Assembly: GCA_029565395.1 (NCBI GenBank)
Contig: JAKQOG010000290.1
Location: 24,035 to 88,034, forward strand
DNA: 64,000 nucleotides
DNA from: Candidatus Hydrogenedentota bacterium
GTDB taxonomy: Bacteria; Hydrogenedentota; Hydrogenedentia; Hydrogenedentales; CAILVY01
Direction: 5' to 3'
A model generated the notes under the pieces. The model saw only the letters and a list, made by a program, of their open reading frames with translations, searched no databases and had not been told where the DNA came from. Positions 3,316 through 62,247 of the stretch are shown here, piece by piece (within the stretch, counting starts at the first letter, position 1; each line of letters starts with the position of its first letter). A program made the position numbers and the translations under genes.

Positions 3316-4920
3316 TTAGTGATAGCGAATATACATATATCCGACGGCCGCCGTCACGAGCGCCCACCAAAAGGCCGGATTTTTCAGCCCGCGCATGCGC
3401 GCGCGAAGTTCCGGCGGCATTCGCAGGCTCTCCCGGGTCCAAATTAGATGACAAATCTCCGCTTCAGGTTTGGGGGTGGTTACAAGGCTCACGGCCATCC
3501 CTGTGAGCATACAGGCCCAGAATACAATCCCCGTGCGGTTGAAAAAAGGGTGCAGGTACTGTCCGAGGGCATCAGGCAGCCGTGGGGTGAGCAATTCAAG
3601 AGCGACCGTCAAGGGAATGGTCAGAATCCCTGCGGCCAGCGCACCCGCATGCGTGGTGCGTTTCCAGAGCACTCCGAGCAGGAACATAGTGGCAATGCCG
3701 GGCGTGACATAGCCGTAGGCGTTAAAGAGGTATATGAATATGGGACGGTCCGAGGATTTGATCAAAACAGACGCCCACAGGATACCCATGACTACAATCG
3801 CCACGCCCATGATGCGGCCAAACAATACCGCCTGCCGGTCTTCTGCTTTTGGATTAATGAAGGGGAGGTAAAAGTCCACCGTGAGAATAGTGGTGCAGGA
3901 ATTGACCGCCCCGGAAATGTGCGACATAATCGCCGCGATAAGCCCCGCCATGACCAGCCCCACCAATCCCTGGGGCAATAAATGTCCGACCAGAGTGGGA
4001 AAGGCCATATCCGGCTTTTCGAGGTTGGGAAACAATATGGGGGCCAGCATGCCGGGGATTACAACGATAAGCGGCAGGAAGAATTTCAGATAATCGGCGA
4101 ATACCACGCCCATTCGCGCATGCCATTCATCCTTCGCGGCCAGCGTCCGTTGAACAATGAACTGATTCGCAGCGCAATAAAATACACTGAGGCAAAGAAT
4201 ACCTCCCAGAAAAGATGTCCACGGGAAATCAGGATCTGTAGCGGGAAGCAATAGTTCCCACGAACCCGAAGTAGCCATGACTCCCTGCCAGCCACCCACG
4301 GCATGAATGGTAGCGAAGGATAGAATAAGCCCCCCGGTCAGCAATACTACTAACTGAAACATTTCGGTCCAGACCACGGCGCGCAATCCGCCGGCGATGG
4401 TGTATATTCCGGTGAATAAGGCAAGCCCAATAATGCTGGCGTTCAAGTTCCAGCCAAACAACGTTTCGAGAGCGATGGCGCCCATATACAACACCGCGCT
4501 GATTTCCACGAAGATATATACAATTAGAATCAACGCGGCAAAAACCGTGCGCGCTGCGCGGCCAAAGCGCTGATCGAGGAATTCAGGCATGGTGTAGAAA
4601 TTGTTGCGCAAATAGAAGGGCAGAAAAATCCATAATAACGCATTAAACCCGATCAGGATGGTGGGCCACTCAATGGTCATGGCGGCAAACCCGCGGGCAT
4701 ACGCGGTGCCGATTACGCCGATGAAATGATGGCTGCTGACATTCGCCGCCACGATGCTTCCGCCGATCATCCACCAGGGCAGGCGATCTCCCGCAAGGAA
4801 GTAGTTTCTCTTGCTGCTTCCCGCGCGCCGCGAGGCGATGATGCCCAGCAGTACTATGCCCGCAAGATAGACTGTAAAGACAATCCCGTCCAGCCATCCA
4901 AGATTTACAACGGCATCCAT
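3316..4920 (-). CDS. Sodium:solute symporter family (SSF/SSS) transporter; longest ORF extends to 4971, and the Met at 4920 lies just before TM1
   Basis: About 13 predicted TM helices and SSF-like N-terminus (NYFLAGDRLPWWMIGGSIVAANVSSHHFIGVIGTAY); Pro/Gly-rich membrane core. Confidence 0.8.
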   Translation of the reverse strand: MDAVVNLGWLDGIVFTVYLAGIVLLGIIASRRAGSSKRNYFLAGDRLPWWMIGGSIVAANVSSHHFIGVIGTAYARGFAAMTIEWPTILIGFNALLWIFLPFYLRNNFYTMPEFLDQRFGRAARTVFAALILIVYIFVEISAVLYMGAIALETLFGWNLNASIIGLALFTGIYTIAGGLRAVVWTEMFQLVVLLTGGLILSFATIHAVGGWQGVMATSGSWELLLPATDPDFPWTSFLGGILCLSVFYCAANQFIVQRTLAAKDEWHARMGVVFADYLKFFLPLIVVIPGMLAPILFPNLEKPDMAFPTLVGHLLPQGLVGLVMAGLIAAIMSHISGAVNSCTTILTVDFYLPFINPKAEDRQAVLFGRIMGVAIVVMGILWASVLIKSSDRPIFIYLFNAYGYVTPGIATMFLLGVLWKRTTHAGALAAGILTIPLTVALELLTPRLPDALGQYLHPFFNRTGIVFWACMLTGMAVSLVTTPKPEAEICHLIWTRESLRMPPELRARMRGLKNPAFWWALVTAAVGYMYIRYH

Positions 4921-7675: not shown

Positions 7676-9646
<1,971 letters not shown>

Positions 9647-39963: not shown

Positions 39964-40925
39964 ATCTAAAGACGGTCATTGCGAACCCCAAATGATTGTC
40001 CCAGGGCTATCGCATTAAAAAAAGCCGATACATTGACATTTCTCAAGAACCGAGCCTCTCCTTCGCAAGGGATTTGCCAGCGTTTGTTTGAATCAACCCA
40101 ATGACAAAGGCGATTTTGCGGGGAATTTTAATGCGATAGCCCTGATGATTGTCCCGATTATTCATTGAATGGAAAAAGAGGCCGGGAGGGCAAAGTTTAT
40201 CACGCGTCTCGCGTGACTCACGCCGGGCCGTGCGGCAAAACATCCCAATTTGTCATTGCAAGGAGCGCCAGCAACGAAGCAATCTCGGAGCCATGTCAAC
40301 CCTGCCCATAGTAGCGCCACTTTCTTAGCAGCGAAGCGAAGTAATCTCGCCGGATTGTCAGCTGTGCATGGTTTCGGGATTGCTTCGCTTCGCTGCTAAG
40401 AAAGTGGCCATGATCGGGAGGGCGAGGTTTATCCACCGCAGGAGGGCTCCTGATGCTGTCTGAGAATTCTCTTTAAGAGTTATTTGATATGACTTGGCAA
40501 AGCTCAGAGTATCCCGCAGGGATTCAATAATTCCAGCCCAGGGTTGTGCGTCAGCGCTACCCTGGGTATGCTGCATCCCTAGAATAGCGCCTACCCTGAA
40601 AGGGTTGGCGCATGGTTAGGTTTAAAATTAAATTTCAACGCGTTGTATAACCCCTTCAGGGTTGGTTTATTAGGGATCTTGACCCAGGGTAGCGCCGGGC
40701 GCAACCCTGGGCTGGAATTATCAATCCCCGTTGGGGATTGCCGATTTTTTCTGTGATTAGCAGACATCGCACGGTCTCTTTTCGTTGTGATCGGCTTTTA
40801 TGAATTCTCAGACAGACTCGGGAGCCCTCCTGCGGCGGATAAACCTCGCCCTCCCGATGGACATGTTCACAACAAGCGCAAAATAACAACCTATGAAAAT
40901 CGATTAGGGATTCTGCAACGTTAAC
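39964..40925. repeat. ~950-bp noncoding region of nested and degenerate palindromic repeats (MITE nest or possible large structured RNA)
   Basis: No ORF with protein-like composition. Contains an inverted repeat 39988-40020 / 40127-40156; a perfect 26-bp stem 40315-40340 / 40383-40408; a 36-bp inverted repeat 40415-40450 / 40821-40855 starting with GGGAGGGCGAGG (same terminus as the MITE family); and an inner ~45-bp inverted repeat 40519-40567 / 40692-40740. Confidence 0.7.
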
Positions 40926-49393: not shown

Positions 49394-51184
49394 CTAACCT
49401 CCCACCCGTTCATGACACGCATACACGGCGTCAAAACCGTCCTTGTTCGCTTCATGTTCGCCATACCAGACAGACTCATAGATTCCCGCGCCCTGCCGGA
49501 ACGCCGGAAGCAGTTCCGGACGCGCATGCTGGTGCCGGGCTAATTCCACGCCGTAATCCCGATTCGACTTGAACCGCGCTATCCGAATAAGGTCCAGGCG
49601 GGACATCCGCGCAAGCATCGCCAGGAATAACGCCCGGATCGCCAGACGGCACTCCCCTTGCTCCATCAATGTCTGGGCCATGCCCAGCCAACCCTCTTCC
49701 GGAAGTTGATCCGCCGATGTGTTTTCATCGGCAACATCCGGCACGGGCGTACTCCCCAGAACAGCCAGCACCGGCGTCTCCTGCCGGCGTTGTTTCCATA
49801 AGCGGAACAGCAATACTCCGATCGCGCCGATCAGGATAATGACGAGCACCACCAGTACCACCCGCAAAATATCCTTTATGGAATCCAATGTCCGCGGGGT
49901 TCGGTCCTTGCTGAACACACGATCCCGGTCCAGGAGCCAGTCAAAGAAACGGTCTATTGCATCCACCGTTTTCTTGGCAGCCCCGCGTATTGTCTCCGAA
50001 ATGTTGCGCAACGTCCGTACAATAAATCCCTCCTGGTTCGGATCCGGCGCCGGACGCGGCATGCGCCAGGTATACCGCATGCGGCTGAGTTCCTGATTCA
50101 GCGCCTTGTCCAGTTGCTGCGCCGTCACTGCATTGGGCCGGGCAACAGGCGCCGCCGCATCTTCTTGCGCCGAAACCGGTAAAGCAACCATCATCATTGC
50201 CGCCGTACCCGCGAATATCATCATCCACGCGGACATCCGCCGCACCCGCCGGAGAAGAATACGGAGATCTTCGCCGTTGCGGCGCGAGCGCCCATAAAAA
50301 CACCGCAGCACATACGCCGTCTTTATCGTGGGATCAAGAACCAGATAGGTCATGCCGCAAATAATCGCTATGAAGGTGCTGTTCTGCACGGCATTCCCGG
50401 ATTGCGAGAGGATCGTCTCAACACCCAGAAAGGAATCCAGCATCTGCGCGCCAAACATCAGGCCCGCGCCAAGATTGAGCGCGACGATAATGCCCACCGG
50501 CGCCAACGGCACAAACGCAATGGACAGCAACACCGCGTACAAATACGCCAATCCCCCCAGCAGCAAGGGCGACAATGAATCCATCACGGGCAGAAACGCC
50601 AGGTATAGCCCGGCCATCAACAACACGAGAAAGGGGCTCAAAAGCCATATCACAATATGGTTTTGCGCAGGCCAGAGTTTGGCCTGCGCCGTCGCATGAT
50701 CAAAAACCTCCCGCGCCGATGCGCCTCCGCCATCATCCAGCACCGTCGCATTTTGATAGGTGGCGTACACCCAGCCAAACGGAAACGCCGTCATCACGGC
50801 GAACGGCAGGGTGAAAAAGCCCGTCATCTGAATGATAGCCTGGAACGAAGCGGACCGGAGCCAGCGCCCCGCCGTCAAAGGCGCTGGAGGCTCATTTTTC
50901 AACCCGGCCATGAGCACATGGCAGAACCGTGCCTGCCATGTCTTCATCCAGACAAATAAAACCGCCATGCCCAGCGCCGCCAGCGGCAATATTGTTGTTG
51001 CCCCCGCGCTTTGAAGCATGGCGCCCCAGAACGTAATCGCCCCCGCCACAAACGGCAACGCCCCAATGTAATACACGGCCAGGACCGCCAGCGGCGTTCC
51101 TTTCAACACCAGCACGGCCTCTTCGGCAATTTGCAGACCGGAAGGACTGGTCTCTCGGGAAGGTTGCATCATGAACTGTCCCAA
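49394..51184 (-). CDS. Polytopic membrane protein with C-terminal DUF4129 domain
   Basis: About 10 TM helices, then a cytoplasmic/periplasmic DUF4129-like C-terminus (RALFLAMLARMSRLDLIRIARFKSNRDYGVELAR...YESVWYG). Confidence 0.65.
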   Translation of the reverse strand: MGQFMMQPSRETSPSGLQIAEEAVLVLKGTPLAVLAVYYIGALPFVAGAITFWGAMLQSAGATTILPLAALGMAVLFVWMKTWQARFCHVLMAGLKNEPPAPLTAGRWLRSASFQAIIQMTGFFTLPFAVMTAFPFGWVYATYQNATVLDDGGGASAREVFDHATAQAKLWPAQNHIVIWLLSPFLVLLMAGLYLAFLPVMDSLSPLLLGGLAYLYAVLLSIAFVPLAPVGIIVALNLGAGLMFGAQMLDSFLGVETILSQSGNAVQNSTFIAIICGMTYLVLDPTIKTAYVLRCFYGRSRRNGEDLRILLRRVRRMSAWMMIFAGTAAMMMVALPVSAQEDAAAPVARPNAVTAQQLDKALNQELSRMRYTWRMPRPAPDPNQEGFIVRTLRNISETIRGAAKKTVDAIDRFFDWLLDRDRVFSKDRTPRTLDSIKDILRVVLVVLVIILIGAIGVLLFRLWKQRRQETPVLAVLGSTPVPDVADENTSADQLPEEGWLGMAQTLMEQGECRLAIRALFLAMLARMSRLDLIRIARFKSNRDYGVELARHQHARPELLPAFRQGAGIYESVWYGEHEANKDGFDAVYACHERVGG

Positions 51185-51522
51185 TCATCTTCCAGGATCG
51201 TCTTATGCTCGTGAAACGTCGAAGGCACGGAGAGCAGCGCCTTTCCTATCACAAAAAATGACCCCCACAAAACCAGCACCCCCAACGCTATCCGGAAAAC
51301 CATGCGCAATGATCCAAAATTCCGTTTCTGGTCAAGTTGCGCCTTAGCGGTTTCTTCTGCAATGCACGCCGCACACAATAACCGGTTGCGGTGCTCCGAA
51401 ACACATTCCCGGCAAAAAAAACGCCCGCATTCCGGACACCGCGCCGCCGCCTCGCGCTGCGCATGATTGAAACACCGCGATTGCGCGAAACTCACATGCT
51501 TGCTGTCAACGTGTTGTTCCAT
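51169..51522 (-). CDS. Small zinc-ribbon membrane protein (4-Cys-pair zinc ribbon plus C-terminal TM helix), first gene of the operon
   Basis: 118-aa product: CFNH...CPECGRFFCRECV...CAAC, then TM MVFRIALGVLVLWGSFFVIG. Start taken at MEQHV (51522) within the longer ORF 51169..51957. Confidence 0.5.
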   Translation of the reverse strand: MEQHVDSKHVSFAQSRCFNHAQREAAARCPECGRFFCRECVSEHRNRLLCAACIAEETAKAQLDQKRNFGSLRMVFRIALGVLVLWGSFFVIGKALLSVPSTFHEHKTILEDDWDSS

Positions 51523-51694
51523 CGGATGCCTGAGAGTGTTGCGCATGCCGCCCAACGGCACGCTCCTCAGCCTATGGTAGGTATTCAGGCATCGCAGATC
51601 AATTTTGTTCCCTCCGGAGACAACCACAGCCCGCACGGAGAGGAAGGGGTATGGTATACTCGTGTTTTTCCACAAAATTACGAAGGTTTTGTGA

Positions 51695-53155
51695 ATGTCC
51701 GAAACCCCCATCGTCCTGAGCACGGTGACCGGACGGTATACCCATGCCGCCTTCGGTTTGCGTTGGCTGTATGCCAATCTGGGGCCCTTGAAAGAAAAAA
51801 CAATTATTCGCGAATTCCACCTCCAACAACCGCCTTTGGAAATCGCGGAACGCCTCCTGGCGGAAAAGCCGCGCATTCTCGGCCTCGGCGTATATATCTG
51901 GAACGTGAACCTCATCACCCAGGTGGCGCAAACCATCAAAGGCGTGCAGCCGGACATCTCCCTCGTTCTCGGCGGTCCGGAAATCAGTTTCGAGTACGAA
52001 AATACACCATTATTCGATACCGCCGATTACATTGTTTGCGGGGAAGGCGAAACAGCCTTCGCGCAACTCGCCGAAGCCATTTTGGAGAACCGTTCACCCG
52101 CGCAAAAAGTAATTCAAGCGGATCGGCTCGATGTGGCCCAACTGCAGCTTCCATACGATGCCTATACGGATCTCGATATCACGCGGCGGCTGGTATACGT
52201 GGAAGCCTCGCGGGGCTGTCCATTCCGATGCGAGTTCTGTCTGTCTTCCCTGGATCCCCATGTGCGCGATTTCCCATTGGAACCTTTTCTCGACGCCCTT
52301 AAAACACTCATTGAGCGCGGTGTGCGCAATATTCTCTTCGTGGACCGCACCTTCAACCTGAAAACAGAACGCGCCGATGCCATCCTCCGCTTTTTCCTTG
52401 AACACTGGCGCGAAGGGCTCCGGGTCCATTTTGAGATTGTGCCCGGCCGTCTGAATGAAACCCTGCTGCGCCGCATGGCGGAATTTCCTCCCGAAGGCCT
52501 GCATCTCGAAGTGGGCGTGCAAACCTTTACTCCCGAAGTGCTCGAAAACATCTCCCGGCGGCAGGATAATCTCAAGACGATAGAAACCATCCACTTCCTG
52601 CGCGAACACACCGGCGTTCTGCTCCATGCCGACCTGGTGGCGGGATTGCCCGGCGAATCCTGGGAAAGTTTTGGCGCCAGTTTCGATCAACTGCTGGCCT
52701 TGCGTCCGCATGAAATCCAGGTAGGCATTCTAAAGCGCCTGAAAGGCGCCCCCATCGCGCGGCATATCCCCGGATTCCACATGGTTTTTTCACCCCAAGC
52801 CCCCTACGACATCTTGCAAACGGACCACCTCAATTTCACCCAAATGCAACGCATCAAACGATTCGCACGCTATTTCGACCTGTATTACAACTCAGGTAAT
52901 TTCCCCACAAGCCTGCCGATCCTGTGGCATAGCCGCCCCTCTGCCTTTGAAGCAGGCATGGCCTTTACGGACTACCTGTGGAACACCACCGGACGCACCC
53001 ACGAATTCCCCTTGGCCCAACTCGCCCGCCATCTCTACGATTTCCTGATACAATCCCCTGCGGCTGATCCCGCCGCCATCGCCGAAACCATCAAAAGCGA
53101 CTTCCACCACATCCCTGGCCGCAAAGACAAACTGTCGTTTCTAAAGAATTGCTAA
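51695..53155 (+). CDS. B12-binding radical SAM protein with C-terminal DUF4080
   Basis: N-terminal B12-binding-like domain; radical SAM CxxxCxxC (EASRGCPFRCEFC); conserved DUF4080-type C-terminal extension. Confidence 0.8.
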   Translation: MSETPIVLSTVTGRYTHAAFGLRWLYANLGPLKEKTIIREFHLQQPPLEIAERLLAEKPRILGLGVYIWNVNLITQVAQTIKGVQPDISLVLGGPEISFEYENTPLFDTADYIVCGEGETAFAQLAEAILENRSPAQKVIQADRLDVAQLQLPYDAYTDLDITRRLVYVEASRGCPFRCEFCLSSLDPHVRDFPLEPFLDALKTLIERGVRNILFVDRTFNLKTERADAILRFFLEHWREGLRVHFEIVPGRLNETLLRRMAEFPPEGLHLEVGVQTFTPEVLENISRRQDNLKTIETIHFLREHTGVLLHADLVAGLPGESWESFGASFDQLLALRPHEIQVGILKRLKGAPIARHIPGFHMVFSPQAPYDILQTDHLNFTQMQRIKRFARYFDLYYNSGNFPTSLPILWHSRPSAFEAGMAFTDYLWNTTGRTHEFPLAQLARHLYDFLIQSPAADPAAIAETIKSDFHHIPGRKDKLSFLKNC

Positions 53156-53165
53156 GGACGTTCCC

Positions 53166-54236
53166 TTACAGATCTTCCATCAGACGGGCAATGTCTTCGG
53201 GCGCGGGTAACAACCCTTCAAGTTCTTTTGGCAAAGTAGGGACTATGCAATACTCTGCAACACCGATGGGCTTGGCGGAATTGCGCAAGGCATATTCAAC
53301 AATGGTGGTATTCTTGTCTTTACATAGAATGATTCCGATGGAAGGGTTTTCACCTTCTTCCCGTACAGTGTCATCAAGAATGGCAAGATAAAACTGCATC
53401 TTGCCCACATATTCTGGTTCAAACTCGCCCACCTTCAATTCAAAGGCAACAAGACACCGAAGCTTCCGATGGAAAAGCAGGAGATCAACAAAGTATTCCT
53501 TGCCTGCGACTTCGAGCCGATACTGGCTGCCAATAAAGGCAAACATTCCACCCATGGCGCGAAGGAAATCCTCGACACGAGACAAGATAGCATGTTCGAG
53601 TTCACGTTCAGAATGTTCTTCGCCCAGCCCGAGAAAATCGAACAGGTATTCGTCTCTCAATGCAAGTTTGGCTTGGTCTCGGATGGATTCTGGCAAGGTA
53701 CTATCAAAGTTGGTTTGACTGATAAGAGTCTTTTCATAAGTCTGGTTCTCAATTTGATGAAGGAGAACACGTTTTGTCCATCCCATTCGGCGCGTCATTT
53801 TAATGTAAAATTCTCGCTGAAGTGGATCCTTGCAGTGTTCTAAAATGACTACATTGTGGCTCCAGGCAATTTCTGCAACCAATGGCTGCAGTTTTTCACA
53901 GTCCGCATAAGTAATGTATAAGTTCCTCATATTCCATATGTTACGAACTGAAAATCCCTGAATACCAGGGAACTCATTCTGAAGATCATGCGCCAAATTC
54001 TCTACCACCGCCTTGCCCCAGGATTCCCCCTGCTGACGCTCGACGATCATACGGCCAATATCCCAGTAAAGGGCAATTAACTCCTTGTTGACGGCCTTCA
54101 GTGCGGCATACTGGGCGGACCGTATACGCTCTTTTACATCCCGTAGCAAGTTGGCATACTCAACGGGAACCTGGCCGGGCTGTGACGCTATTTCGGCTTT
54201 GGACTCATTCGCATGGTGTTCTTTTGTCATATGCAA
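53166..54236 (-). CDS. YhcG/DUF1016-family PD-(D/E)XK nuclease-domain protein
   Basis: DUF1016 N-terminal region (YWDIGRMIVERQQ...) and a C-terminal PD-(D/E)XK core (VDLLLFHRKLRCLVAFELKVGEF); local GC (~46%) well below the flanks. Confidence 0.7.
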   Translation of the reverse strand: MHMTKEHHANESKAEIASQPGQVPVEYANLLRDVKERIRSAQYAALKAVNKELIALYWDIGRMIVERQQGESWGKAVVENLAHDLQNEFPGIQGFSVRNIWNMRNLYITYADCEKLQPLVAEIAWSHNVVILEHCKDPLQREFYIKMTRRMGWTKRVLLHQIENQTYEKTLISQTNFDSTLPESIRDQAKLALRDEYLFDFLGLGEEHSERELEHAILSRVEDFLRAMGGMFAFIGSQYRLEVAGKEYFVDLLLFHRKLRCLVAFELKVGEFEPEYVGKMQFYLAILDDTVREEGENPSIGIILCKDKNTTIVEYALRNSAKPIGVAEYCIVPTLPKELEGLLPAPEDIARLMEDL

Positions 54237-54310
54237 CGCATCCCCTCCTCACAAAACATTGCTCCGTAATTGCTCAGCATCATGTATATATATCTTACCA
54301 AACGGTAAAA

Positions 54311-56047
54311 TCAAAAGATACAAAATCCGTCTTCCCCCGCATCGCACGCCTGATACCCCCCGCTATTGTACAACTGCATCAGCCGGAGCAGTTCGGAAAG
54401 ATCGATTTTCCAATCGGCGGGATTATAATCGCTCGAATGCTGCGGGAAGGACCACCGGTTGCCATCACTCAAGCCGTAATCATCCTCGCTTCCAGGATCG
54501 CAGTGATATCCATACGAACGCGCGGGATATGATTGATAAAGCTGTATCCCGCGAAGCAATTCGGAAAGACTGATATGATGGTCGCTGTTAATATCGGCTG
54601 AATGCACCGACGCGGGATGCGATCCATCGGAGGTCAATGTAATGTCCCGGCGCGTAGTGCTTCCGGAAACCACCGTAACCCCGCTGATCGTACGGGAAAC
54701 ATATCCTGGCGCGGAAACCGCCAGCGTATAGGTCCCCGGCAGGAGCATCCGGTGATAATCGCCCACATCCGGATCAGTAATCACCGGATGATCGATTCCC
54801 TGAACGCTTATCCTCGCATACACCGGCGCACCCGTAGAGGCATCGGTGACAACTCCGCGTACCCCCCAATGCACCGTTTCCATATAGGAAAGCATCGATT
54901 CCCGGTTGTACTCCCAAAACTGTCCCAGCGTCGATTGCGCGGGCTTCTTGGTATTGGATAGCTCAATCGTCATCTGATTGTTACTGGCGTACCGGTAGTT
55001 CCAGTCCTGCATCCCCCCATACACCGTGTACCACGCGGCCCCGTTGGTGATCCCGTGCTCAAACAAGAAATTGTTCCACATCGGCGTATTATATTGTGAA
55101 TATACTTCCGCCACTTGAATGAACAGCGCATCATCCGGGGAAATGGTATACGTGTTTGCCGGAGCATCGCCCTCATCAAACGGATAATTCACCACCAGCG
55201 CGCCTGTATGAAAATTCGCGGAAAGCGTGAAACTGTGCTGCGCGGTCCAGCGCATCATGTGCTGCACTTCCGTGGGACGTCCCGGCGCATCGATCATCCC
55301 GCCATCCAGAAGATTTTCCGAGGGGCCGTCCTGAACATAACTCGGGAAGTTCCGGTTCAGATCAAAGCCCTGTGCATTATACCGCGTGCCGTTAGTGAGC
55401 CCGTCCGGATTCATCAAGGGCACAATCCAAATCTCCGTTTCATCCACCAACTGCGTAGCGCGCACCCCATCTTCCGTATACGCGCCATAATTGCTCAGCA
55501 ACCACTTGATCAACTGCAGGCACATCTCCGTGCCAATCGGTTCATCCCCATGGATGGTGGAAACATATTTGAACTCCGGCTCATCCTCCTCCGCATCCGG
55601 ATTGGCCGTAATTTTCACCGCCCAGAGCGTACGCCCGTTCACCGAATCCCCCAGCGAATACAACCGGCAGATGGACGGGTAATCGTTCGCATATTCCTGC
55701 AAGGCCGATGTCAACGAGGAATAACTGTGATACACCCAGACGGCCTTGGATACTTCATCGAACACCGGCGGATTCGGCTGACATTCCACTACCCTATAAG
55801 TCAAACCATGACTTTCGATCTGCCGTAATTCTTCTTCCCGCGCATACACCCGGATCCGGCCCTCCGCCATCCCGTCCACATCAAAGTGATTCCTCACCAA
55901 AAAATCCAGTGTTTCCCTGGAACCTTGTTCCACTTCAATCACATACACCCGCCCCAGGACCAAATCATCCGATGCGGATGAAGCCCCCAAAAGGGAAATT
56001 GCAGCTACAACATACAGTCCAATAAACATGCGCACCACTATCGGCAA
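54311..56047 (-). CDS. Secreted M14-family zinc carboxypeptidase with carboxypeptidase-regulatory-like beta-sandwich and two C-terminal dockerin-like repeats
   Basis: Signal peptide; M14 zinc-ligand block STIHGDEPIG; CarbopepD_reg-like segment GVVTDASTGAPVYARISVQG...PGTYTLAVSAPGY; C-terminal repeats DINSDHHISLSELLRGIQLYQS and DWKIDLSELLRLMQLYNS. Confidence 0.7.
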   Translation of the reverse strand: MPIVVRMFIGLYVVAAISLLGASSASDDLVLGRVYVIEVEQGSRETLDFLVRNHFDVDGMAEGRIRVYAREEELRQIESHGLTYRVVECQPNPPVFDEVSKAVWVYHSYSSLTSALQEYANDYPSICRLYSLGDSVNGRTLWAVKITANPDAEEDEPEFKYVSTIHGDEPIGTEMCLQLIKWLLSNYGAYTEDGVRATQLVDETEIWIVPLMNPDGLTNGTRYNAQGFDLNRNFPSYVQDGPSENLLDGGMIDAPGRPTEVQHMMRWTAQHSFTLSANFHTGALVVNYPFDEGDAPANTYTISPDDALFIQVAEVYSQYNTPMWNNFLFEHGITNGAAWYTVYGGMQDWNYRYASNNQMTIELSNTKKPAQSTLGQFWEYNRESMLSYMETVHWGVRGVVTDASTGAPVYARISVQGIDHPVITDPDVGDYHRMLLPGTYTLAVSAPGYVSRTISGVTVVSGSTTRRDITLTSDGSHPASVHSADINSDHHISLSELLRGIQLYQSYPARSYGYHCDPGSEDDYGLSDGNRWSFPQHSSDYNPADWKIDLSELLRLMQLYNSGGYQACDAGEDGFCIF

Positions 56048-56137
56048 TCAACCGCATCCTTGTCAAATAAGGAAAACCTCATTGCATGCAACATGAAATA
56101 TGGCAATCCGATGGGAGTATAGAATGGCATTCGATGA

Positions 56138-56437
56138 TCACCTTACTTCAATAAGTTCGAGGCGAAGGCGCTTCCCTACTGCGGCTGCTGCACGCTGCAG
56201 CGTATGCAATGTAACGGAGGTATTAGTGGCATCCAACAAACGATCAAGTGCCGGCCTGCTTGTGCGCATACGACGCGCCATCTGTGCTTTTGAAAGCCCT
56301 TCAGCCCTCATTGCCTGATCTATCTGCATGGCAAGAAGTTCTTTGATGGCACGTTCCTCGCACTCTTCCAATATCCCCTCCTCCGCCAAAAAATCATCAA
56401 ACAATGATCCAATATTTCCCTTATTCTGTTTCTTCAT
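56138..56437 (-). CDS. XRE-family HTH antitoxin (HigA-like)
   Basis: 99-aa product with HTH region (LSKAQMARRMRTSRPALDRLLD); immediately downstream of and co-oriented with the Gp49-like toxin gene; low local GC. Confidence 0.6.
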   Translation of the reverse strand: MKKQNKGNIGSLFDDFLAEEGILEECEERAIKELLAMQIDQAMRAEGLSKAQMARRMRTSRPALDRLLDATNTSVTLHTLQRAAAAVGKRLRLELIEVR

Positions 56438-56460
56438 GGTAAAACCACCTCCATCATTTC

Positions 56461-56805
56461 CTATCGCCTTATTAGTGACTTCATCCGTTTGTAAGCAAGT
56501 TCAATGTCTTGGCTTGGTGTTTTCTGCGTTTTCTTAATAAAACCATGAAAAAGAACCATGGTCCCTTCCACAAAGCCAAAAATAACTCGCGCTATTCTGC
56601 CGTCAGATATGTTGCTCCGTATTTCCCAAAGACCAGATCCCAAGGATCGACACACTGGAAGCCCAATAGACCAGCCAAATTCAACTTTTTGGATATCTTT
56701 CCCAATGGTTTTTCGGTCATTAGCGTCCAATTCTTTTAACCACTGGCGAACGGGTTCCTCCCCGCTTTCAGCGGCAAAAAATCGCGCTGGAACTTTTTTA
56801 TACAT
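56461..56805 (-). CDS. Gp49-like (PF05973/DUF891) RelE/HigB-superfamily toxin
   Basis: 114-aa product; the blocks ARVIFGFVEGTMVLFHGFIKKTQKTPSQDIELAYKRM are the hallmark of phage Gp49-like addiction-module killer proteins. Confidence 0.6.
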   Translation of the reverse strand: MYKKVPARFFAAESGEEPVRQWLKELDANDRKTIGKDIQKVEFGWSIGLPVCRSLGSGLWEIRSNISDGRIARVIFGFVEGTMVLFHGFIKKTQKTPSQDIELAYKRMKSLIRR

Positions 56806-56887
56806 AGCCTTCTCTTATAGTATGCATCAAATTTGGTGCGCGGTCAAGGGGACACTATTTAGAACGCGAGATGTAAACGAATACCTC

Positions 56888-61811: not shown

Positions 61812-61914
61812 GCCGTTATCGCTATCGCTATCGCTATCGCTATCGCTTTTGGCATCGCTATCGCTATCGTTATCGCTATCGTTATCGCTATCGCTATCGC
61901 TATCGCTATCGTGT
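61812..61914. repeat. Hexanucleotide microsatellite (ATCGCT)5 - TTTGGC - (ATCGCT/ATCGTT)10
   Basis: Direct reading of 61812-61914. Sits in the ~500-bp divergent region between the giant secreted gene (-) and queF (+). Confidence 0.9.
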
Positions 61915-62247
61915 TCCCCATTATGTCTGCTTCCTCTTCTTCCACCTCATCCAATTGCTCCTACTGGTCCTCTTCTCCCAGTCTTCCCAGTCTCTTGCCG
62001 CGGCGAAGTTCCGGTCTCGCGGAACGAAGCCGGGTCCCAGACCTCCAACCGGTTTGCATCCCCTGCACCTTGCGTTTCTAAAAAGTCCCCGGCGAAGAAA
62101 ACGTGCCAAAAAGAAAACTACTACTGCGATGACCATTTACGCTACGCTTATACACGGCGACTCTGAACATACAAGCAATCTTGGAATGACAAATGAAATG
62201 AAGAGTTGACTAAAAACCAGGGTAGTTTACCGAACATCGAGGCGGAT

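Follow-up and report, generated by a model that had tools for sequence, protein, structure and literature searches.

Two probable, separately acquired cassettes, a solitary YhcG/DUF1016 gene and a higBA-type operon, beside a resident M14 carboxypeptidase gene in a Candidatus Hydrogenedentes bacterium

In a 64-kb stretch of DNA from an uncultured Candidatus Hydrogenedentes bacterium (here termed the window), two unrelated mobile cassettes, each acquired separately, are likely to flank a vertically inherited M14B carboxypeptidase gene, a reading to which we assign a probability of about 0.8. The first cassette would be a solitary YhcG gene, encoding a helical, possibly DNA-binding domain joined to a Hjc-like, Mg2+-dependent endonuclease domain of the PD-(D/E)XK fold. 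The second would be a self-contained type II toxin-antitoxin (TA) operon of the higBA type, with the toxin gene placed first. The presence and absence of the two units differ among relatives, and hence they appear to have arrived or decayed independently. The original prediction had seen in them, together with the peptidase gene between them, one horizontally acquired islet devoted to defense or addiction.

Organization and base composition of the locus

All four open reading frames (ORFs) lie exactly where the original prediction had placed them, and their Pfam families agree with the identities it had given. The features of the locus are as follows, with L115 and L007 denoting the corresponding loci of a close and of a more distant relative, respectively.

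53146-54317, no strand assigned: insertion tract 1, 1172 bp (GC 0.462, z -3.75), from blastn against L007 and junction alignments
53166-54236, minus strand: YhcG/DUF1016 ORF; gene proper 53166-54230, 354 aa
53832-54002, minus strand: mosaic patch in YhcG, about residues 77-133, in the N-terminal domain
54311-56047, minus strand: M14 carboxypeptidase ORF; gene proper 54311-56029, M14B-type zinc carboxypeptidase, probably resident
56050-56880, no strand assigned: insertion tract 2 with the TA cassette, 831 bp (GC 0.451, z -3.64), from blastn and tblastn against L115 and alignment
56138-56437, minus strand: HTH antitoxin ORF, HigA-like, 99 aa
56461-56805, minus strand: Gp49 toxin ORF, HigB-like, RelE-ParE superfamily, 114 aa
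56819-56848, minus strand: promoter-like site from a promoter scan, TTGACC, 17 nt, CATACT
56824-56839, minus strand: near-perfect palindrome GCACCAAATTTGATGC between the promoter hexamers, candidate HigA operator

The mean GC content of the whole window is 0.546 (54.6%). Sliding-window comparison with stretches of the same length gives z scores of -3.44 for the YhcG gene (GC 0.466) and -3.11 for the TA pair (0.458; toxin, 0.432; antitoxin, 0.490), and for either unit a value this low recurs at none of the approximately 59,000 other positions in the window. The low GC content ascribed to both units is hence upheld, as for their size they are the lowest in the window; the contrast with flanks of ~60% is not, since the background is close to 55% and only a 1620-aa gene reaches ~59-60% (0.593). 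The M14 gene (0.535) and the gene for a B12-radical SAM protein (rSAM, 0.554) lie near the mean. At third codon positions the z scores are -1.8 for YhcG, -2.1 for the antitoxin, -3.2 for the toxin, and +0.1 for M14. Tetranucleotide usage gives a more mixed picture: the segment 53001-54000 has the second largest distance in the window (z 3.7), as the proposal of an acquired tract would have it, but the 1-kb windows across M14 are atypical too (z 2.6-3.2), which slightly weakens the reading of M14 as native.

The M14 carboxypeptidase is likely resident

The peptidase is recovered by Pfam as Peptidase_M14 (7.9e-60) together with CarboxypepD_reg, and it matches domain II of carboxypeptidase D (PDB 1h8l) with an E value of 4.8e-79, the HGDE motif, the second histidine, and the catalytic glutamate being aligned. 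The catalytic domain is accompanied by a transthyretin-like domain and a C-terminal twin-repeat module, the latter showing a sub-threshold similarity to EF-hands. Its description as secreted comes solely from a hydrophobic N-terminal stretch, MFIGLYVVAAISLLGASSA, read by eye. Orthologs are found in L115 (93% identity), L007 (78%), and L127 (78%); in the genome that includes L008 and L127 the gene lies elsewhere, adjoining the same gene for a 3-keto-disaccharide hydrolase domain as in L007. Given its native composition (GC 53.5%, GC3 z +0.1) and these orthologs in sister genomes, we take M14 to be resident; by these signs it is vertically inherited and lies outside the acquired DNA. A metagenome scan with M14 returned 80 loci, all at most 57% identical and none with an rSAM, YhcG, TA, or BIG gene nearby, and is for that reason uninformative on synteny.

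The YhcG protein

The YhcG ORF reaches a TTG at 54236, but translation more likely begins at the ATG at 54230, which has GAGGAGGGG upstream of it. Two Pfam families cover its product, namely DUF1016_N (PF17761; 1e-47, 162.1 bits, cut-off 32.8, positions 1-137 of 137) and YhcG_C (PF06250; 1.3e-60, 204.3 bits, cut-off 32.5, positions 3-156 of 157). By these matches it is a two-domain protein, with an N-terminal helical DUF1016_N domain and a predicted C-terminal PD-(D/E)XK nuclease domain. E212, D249, and E264-L-K266 together form an E-D-ELK motif, corresponding to the E-D-E(I/L/V)K catalytic motif of YhcG/DUF1016 nucleases (PMC1189080); across 32 homologs D249 and K266 never vary, and conservation at E212 and E264 is 90% or higher. 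The PADLOC profile PDC-S02 aligns over positions 6-338 of 346 (best E value, 2.6e-149). A sequence search of the PDB with YhcG gave no match. None of the four proteins of the region had an NCBIfam match that passed the curated cut-offs, and YhcG had no match there whatsoever. In the structural model the N-terminal half is all-helical (pLDDT 65-91); with a mean pLDDT of 64 for the whole low-confidence model, the fold matches are only suggestive, and a restriction-endonuclease-like core of the alpha-beta-beta-beta-alpha-beta type is no more than a putative feature.

Between the alleles of the window and L115 dN/dS is 0.16, which indicates that the gene is retained under purifying selection. The two differ most in a patch at 53832-54002, where identity falls to 59-62%, against 85-95% elsewhere in the gene, and dS rises to 1.6-1.8, against 0.33-0.54 outside, with dN/dS at about 0.15-0.18.

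Insertion of YhcG and its spread

In both the window and L115, tract 1 occupies the spacer between rSAM and M14, with identical junctions. The gene order in L115 is BIG-M14-YhcG-rSAM, and its proteins are 92% (rSAM), 93% (M14), and 91% (BIG) identical to those of the window. In L007 (83% identity for rSAM and 78% for M14) YhcG is missing and the two genes are separated by an unrelated spacer of 277 bp; blastn of the window against L007 finds homology only at 50008-53145 and 54318-55948. We propose that YhcG entered this spacer before the window and L115 diverged and was then kept by purifying selection, recombination having left a single patch inside it. The polarity of this gain is set by a single outgroup contig, L007, from which YhcG may instead be absent through loss. 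The rSAM protein, in an exact-protein look-up, was 100% identical to that of the window at all six listed places (eight contigs read), so that they offer no strain-level polymorphism to exploit; the strain occurs in anaerobic digesters.

Homologs about 70% identical to this YhcG occur in cyanobacteria, actinobacteria, a deltaproteobacterium, and Methanosarcinales, whereas the identity of the neighboring rSAM falls to ~50% outside the lineage. Plasmid records (534) and phage records (15) contain homologs as well. The closest ones lie in unrelated contexts, one of them (78% identical) adjoining HsdS, and three independent insertion sites share neither conserved flanks nor a target sequence. We know of no demonstrated function for this very widespread family. 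The likeliest role of the protein would be the cleavage of foreign or otherwise marked DNA; the alternative is its persistence as a selfish gene.

The toxin-antitoxin cassette and its decay

The toxin gene is followed directly by that of the antitoxin on the same strand, with a gap of 23 nt, i.e., in the reversed order. The toxin matches Gp49 (PF05973; 7.4e-21, 74.4 bits, cut-off 23.9) and the antitoxin HTH_37 (1.2e-6, 28.6 bits, cut-off 27). In the PDB, phmmer pairs them with the two chains of one complex, HigB (6af3_A, 1.9e-9) and HigA (6af3_B, 2.1e-3). Each of the antitoxin homologs, 72-90% identical, directly follows a toxin homolog, the pairing being kept at three other loci. The closest homologs of the pair occur in unrelated contexts, one of them beside an integrase and HsdM.

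Upstream of the toxin gene, the palindrome GCACCAAATTTGATGC is found once in the window against an expectation of 0.02. At three independent loci with unrelated flanks (L120/L121, L122, and L124) the block CTTGAC..GCACCA(N4)TGrTGCAT likewise lies upstream of toxin homologs. The pair hence appears to carry its own promoter and a conserved palindromic operator, a candidate for autoregulation. A terminator scan gave counts no higher than those of shuffled controls. We propose that the toxin is a ribosome-dependent mRNA endonuclease and that the HTH antitoxin binds and neutralizes it and represses the operon through the promoter palindrome. If stress, takeover by a phage, or the loss of the locus were to halt synthesis of the antitoxin, the freed toxin would then arrest growth.

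Among the relatives compared, the intact pair is present in the window only. In place of tract 2, L115 has an AT-rich spacer of 273 bp, which by blastn, tblastn, alignment, and ORF analysis holds no toxin and, of the antitoxin, nothing but a relic of the initial 46 codons. The cassette, intact in the window, has on this sequence evidence demonstrably decayed in L115. As no outgroup has an intact BIG-M14 junction, the insertion of the cassette is read from its composition and the mobility of its family only.

Surroundings and signs of mobility

Neither the neighborhood nor the sequence around the cassettes bears out the proposed context of a defense islet. The neighbors are metabolic or housekeeping genes, including a MoxR/DUF58 operon, the rSAM gene, a gene for a GH38-like giant protein, QueF, and uridine kinase. 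No integrase or transposase was found near the cassettes; direct or inverted repeats flanking either of them were limited to short matches at chance level, with no target-site duplication. There is no genuine tRNA to serve as an insertion target, the sole ARAGORN call (tRNA-Cys, 9175-9265) being 44 kb away, inside an ORF and without Rfam support. Other defense genes were not found nearby: PADLOC matched YhcG strongly and the TA proteins weakly.

The families themselves are nevertheless frequent on mobile DNA and close to defense genes; this is attested by the plasmid and phage records of YhcG, its PDC-S02 assignment and its homolog beside HsdS, and by the TA homolog beside an integrase and HsdM. 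We only infer the biochemical activities of YhcG and the TA proteins and any anti-phage role, a defense function for the YhcG of the window included.

Alternative readings

One possibility, which we regard as doubtful, is that YhcG is an active single-gene system, anti-phage or selfish, in which a ParB/KorB-like helical N-terminal domain would be a swappable DNA-recognition module and the patch of ~57 residues a switch of specificity by recombination. Outside this exchanged patch the alleles of the window and L115 are 93-97% identical. The shuffling of HsdS in Type I restriction-modification (RM) operons, which often host this family, would be an analog of such a switch.

It is rather unlikely that YhcG, instead of defending its host, is a selfish nuclease gene of a homing-like kind, which moves into the spacers between genes, also within RM operons, as an ORF on its own. 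Its insertion as a near-bare ORF in spacers of unrelated loci without conserved flanks would fit, as would its extreme conservation across phyla, the internal recombination patch, and the enrichment of YhcG between RM genes (PMC9881135). However, three independent sites lack a common target sequence, and purifying selection that acts over the long term, once the gene is fixed at one locus, is just as well explained by a useful gene. Further, homing has to our knowledge never been shown for the YhcG/DUF1016 family, which also counts against this proposal.

Quite improbable, in our judgment, is that nothing was acquired and that both units are old residents, with a low GC content set by family-specific constraint, which relatives have lost. 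The TA pair is, after all, decayed in L115; both units, or a relic, are shared with L115 and so predate its split from the window; and TA homologs elsewhere are 4-7 GC points lower than their hosts, so that the family as such could be low in GC. On the other side, YhcG is ~70% identical to proteins of other phyla and an archaeon, far above its neighboring genes; both families occur in unrelated contexts, YhcG also on plasmids and phages; the deviation is strongest at GC3, the least constrained position; and the unrelated spacer of L007 bears no deletion scar.

A single contiguous acquired islet of YhcG, M14, and the TA pair is very improbable. In its favor, the three units are adjacent and co-directional, windows over M14 are tetranucleotide-atypical, and synteny breakpoints among relatives fall in this region. 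But the GC and GC3 of M14 are native, no island boundaries, integrase, or tRNA are seen, and the low-GC DNA forms two troughs parted by 1.7 kb of native-GC M14. Orthologs of M14, 78-93% identical, occur in L007 where YhcG is missing, in L115 where the TA pair is missing, and in L127 where both are; these three loci largely refute the islet. What stands of the originally proposed islet is a pair of low-GC accessory units; comparison with related genomes finds each of them variable, as anticipated, but in differing phyletic patterns.

Implications

In favoring two separate cassettes around a resident gene, the main value of the analysis is one of correction: where compositional troughs adjoin, comparative evidence is needed before they are joined into one "island." Both YhcG and the TA pair belong to known families as unremarkable members, and the locus leaves current understanding unchallenged. 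It offers a clean small example of a TA cassette that would bring along its own promoter and operator when it travels and later decay, in L115 by losing the toxin before the antitoxin, of which a stub remains, and another of YhcG inserting as a bare ORF. The mosaic N-terminal patch is a modest lead for the study of the YhcG/DUF1016 family.

Comparison with known systems

YhcG of Escherichia coli (PF06250 and PF17761, equivalent to PDC-S02 of PADLOC) has the same two-domain architecture and E-D-E(I/L/V)K motif. PDC-S02, one of 145 phage defense candidates in PADLOC, described as untested, is defined by embedding in Type I RM, BREX, or DISARM systems; the YhcG of the window differs in being solitary, adjoined by rSAM and M14 in a metabolic neighborhood. 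The peptidase shares its catalytic and transthyretin-like domains, zinc ligands, and catalytic glutamate with domain II of duck carboxypeptidase D (PDB 1H8L), a metazoan M14B enzyme, but it is bacterial, with a signal-peptide-like N terminus and an additional C-terminal twin-repeat module of ~100 aa. The TA pair is by its phmmer E values a distant match to HigBA of Streptococcus pneumoniae (PDB 6AF3/6AF4; PMC7984235), from which it differs in host phylum and in the sequence of the operator, and D61 is replaced by glycine, a position at which D61A has a negligible effect in that HigB (PMC7984235). Both chains are nonetheless matched, the toxin-first order and the HTH antitoxin are common to the two systems, and R63, R70, F89, and K91 of the toxin align with R68, R73, F90, and K92, the four residues needed for the RNase activity and toxicity of S. 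pneumoniae HigB (PMC7984235).

Two mobile cassettes beside a resident gene

The original prediction described a single acquired defence islet in which a nuclease gene and a toxin-antitoxin pair bracket a peptidase gene. The evidence does not bear this out: the nuclease gene and the toxin-antitoxin pair have independent histories and the peptidase gene is resident, so that the “islet” is mere adjacency and not an entity. The revised reading is that two ordinary mobile cassettes, independent of each other, lie on either side of a resident gene. The locus consists of four co-directional ORFs, all on the minus strand, with the coordinates originally predicted:

53166-54230, minus strand: YhcG/DUF1016 PD-(D/E)XK nuclease gene (from the likelier start; the ORF as originally placed reaches 54236)
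53832-54002, minus strand: mosaic patch in the nuclease gene (about aa 77-133, N-terminal domain), divergent from the allele of a close relative
54311-56029, minus strand: M14 carboxypeptidase gene
54311-54620, minus strand: C-terminal module of the carboxypeptidase (about 100 aa), with a D-x-N-x-D..ISLSELLR..QLY motif present twice, apparent as a 38-nt direct repeat
56138-56437, minus strand: HigA-like antitoxin gene
56461-56805, minus strand: HigB-like/Gp49 toxin gene

HMM searches recovered the Pfam domains YhcG_C and DUF1016_N, Peptidase_M14 and CarboxypepD_reg, HTH_37, and Gp49, in agreement with the families claimed for nuclease, peptidase, antitoxin, and toxin. The claim of low GC holds for the nuclease gene (46.6%, z -3.4) and the toxin-antitoxin pair (45.8%, z -3.1), each lower than any other stretch of its length in the 64 kb, but the background is about 55% and not 60% (whole window, 54.6%; adjoining B12-radical-SAM gene, 55.4%; M14 gene, 53.5%; 1620-aa gene, 59.3%). 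The nuclease, antitoxin, and toxin genes also have the lowest GC3 among the plausible genes of the window, with a short, probably spurious ORF (61849-62166) in the same range, and tetranucleotide usage over the nuclease gene is strongly deviant (z 3.7). The M14 gene has average GC3 (z +0.1); unexpectedly, 1-kb windows over part of it (54001-55500) are atypical in tetranucleotides (z 2.6-3.2), with a GC-normalised correlation z down to -3.1, despite normal GC and GC3.

The surroundings comprise a MoxR/DUF58/DUF4350/DUF4129 operon, the B12-radical-SAM gene, a GH38-like giant protein, QueF, and a uridine-kinase-family gene, with no defence gene among them. Neither mobility genes (integrase, transposase) nor a genuine tRNA or flanking repeats were found around the region. 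An ARAGORN call elsewhere, a 91-nt tRNA-Cys at 9175-9265 within a 656-aa ORF (7676-9646), is probably a false positive, since Rfam reports no tRNA there at the gathering threshold.

Separately, tetranucleotide deviation per kilobase peaks in the window (z 3.8) over some 960 nt (39964-40925) that contain no convincing ORF and match no Rfam family. This stretch is dense in long inverted repeats (57 nt, 93%; a 34-nt hairpin, 94%; 23 nt, 96%; 19 nt, 100%), and the 36-nt core of the longest arm is confined to that one pair; nested MITE-like elements or a structured RNA could account for it.

Comparison with related genomes

In a Logan contig of a close relative (L115), the order is giant protein-M14-nuclease-radical-SAM, with amino acid identities to the window of 91% (giant protein), 93% (M14), and 92% (radical-SAM), and the sequences at both nuclease junctions match. 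Its spacer between the giant-protein and M14 genes (273 bp, 38% GC) bears no trace of the toxin gene; a 59-codon ORF (4038-4217; counterpart, 56332-56437) is an antitoxin relic, which lacks the HTH and whose MKKQNK... part resembles the first 46 antitoxin codons (63% amino acid and 76% nucleotide identity). In a more distant relative (L007), the radical-SAM (83%) and M14 (78%) genes are convergent neighbours separated by an unrelated 277-bp spacer, and homology with the window ends at 53145 and restarts at 54318. In a third genome (L008/L127), the genes following the radical-SAM gene are unrelated and the M14 orthologue (78%) lies on a separate contig, adjoined by a 3-keto-disaccharide-hydrolase-domain gene that also precedes M14 in L007. 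Across the four related genomes, gene order differs on both sides of the radical-SAM and M14 genes.

Taken together, these comparisons indicate that M14 was inherited vertically within a rearrangement-prone neighbourhood, and that both low-GC units were present before the window and L115 diverged. The nuclease gene would thus have been gained before that split, its loss from L007 being the less likely alternative; the toxin-antitoxin pair is likewise older than the split, intact only in the window and decayed in L115. These differing patterns of presence and decay argue for independent histories of the two units.

The L007, L008, and L127 records (CAYXPO01, CAYYRW01) are titled “uncultured Nitrospirales”; as they share gene order and 75% DNA identity with the Hydrogenedentes window, these labels look wrong. 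Window positions 41695-63155 are identical to contig DAONNH010000001.1 of the MAG GCA_035393045.1, whose toxin protein NCBI assigns to Candidatus Hydrogenedentes, and identical contigs occur in several JGI, ENA, and Logan metagenome assemblies.

The YhcG nuclease gene

E212, D249, and E264-L-K266 make up the family's E-D-E(I/L/V)K motif (PMC1189080) and are invariant or almost invariant across 32 homologues; a dN/dS of 0.16 relative to L115 indicates purifying selection. Homologues number in the thousands, with family members in 534 plasmid and 15 phage records, Wolbachia phage WO among them. The named homologues of about 70% identity belong to Nostocales, Thermoleophilia, Rubrobacter, a deltaproteobacterium, and Methanosarcinales, whereas radical-SAM identity drops to about 50% outside the lineage, which is strong evidence that the nuclease gene has spread horizontally. 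The genomic settings of the nearest homologues are unrelated: one gene is flanked by a peptide ABC transporter and the Thx gene, and another adjoins HsdS. The independent insertions compared have no common flank outside the ORF. This insertion as an ORF alone and the mosaic patch are the only mildly unusual features.

The patch is 59-62% identical in DNA to L115, against roughly 80-95% for the remaining allele; at the protein level, identity over aa 77-133 is about 50% as judged by eye (computed segment 60-140, 65%), against 93% over aa 146-354 and 97% over aa 251-354. Synonymous divergence in the patch is saturated (dS 1.6-1.8, dN/dS about 0.15-0.18), and the two halves of aa 146-354 have dS of 0.33-0.85. 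This mosaic divergence, with saturated dS and low dN/dS, points to an import by recombination into the N-terminal domain, which weakly resembles ParB/KorB DNA-binding domains, rather than to positive selection in situ.

The carboxypeptidase

Among solved structures, the protein matches carboxypeptidase D domain II and carboxypeptidases N and M best (4.8e-79 and below), and its zinc ligands (H160, E163, H274) and catalytic residue (E356) align with theirs; by eye, the N terminus is signal-peptide-like. The C-terminal module has only sub-threshold similarity to EF-hands; an unrelated LRR protein (L008 17973-18248) terminates in a copy of it with 50% identity, and in some M14 homologues dockerin or EF-hand domains occupy its position. 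The module may be specific to the lineage and serve in calcium binding or anchoring.

The toxin-antitoxin cassette

The toxin gene comes first, followed after a 23-nt gap by the antitoxin gene. Upstream is a promoter-like TTGACC-17-CATACT, and between its hexamers sits the palindrome GCACCAAATTTGATGC, a type of site found once in the window against 0.02 expected. The closest toxin homologues (70-77% identity) occupy three unrelated contexts, one beside an integrase and HsdM; directly downstream of each is an antitoxin with 72-90% identity to that of the window, and upstream of each the CTTGAC..GCACCA(N4)TGrTGCAT block of the window recurs, neighbouring sequence being unrelated. In those hosts too, the cassettes lie 4-7 GC points under their surroundings. 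The pair is a self-contained, putatively autoregulated higBA-type cassette.

Four identical-strain contigs from different data sources terminate within the antitoxin gene at 56316-56342, three of them exactly at 56342, and one of these three runs on into Illumina adapter sequence; these shared ends are probably a library or assembly artefact.

Comparison with known systems

Each cassette adds a new member to a well-known family, and any defence function is a proposal based on family membership. For the toxin-antitoxin pair, this extends to its activity and any phage-defence or locus-stabilising role; toxin and antitoxin match chains A (1.9e-9) and B (2.1e-3) of the same complex, S. pneumoniae HigBA (6AF3). 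R68, R73, F90, and K92 of that HigB, which matter for RNase activity and toxicity (PMC7984235), align with R63, R70, F89, and K91 of the window toxin. PADLOC assigns the nuclease to the phage-defence candidate class PDC-S02 (2.6e-149). Independently, DUF1016 is reported to be enriched beside invertible RM genes (PMC9881135); the gene described here is solitary.
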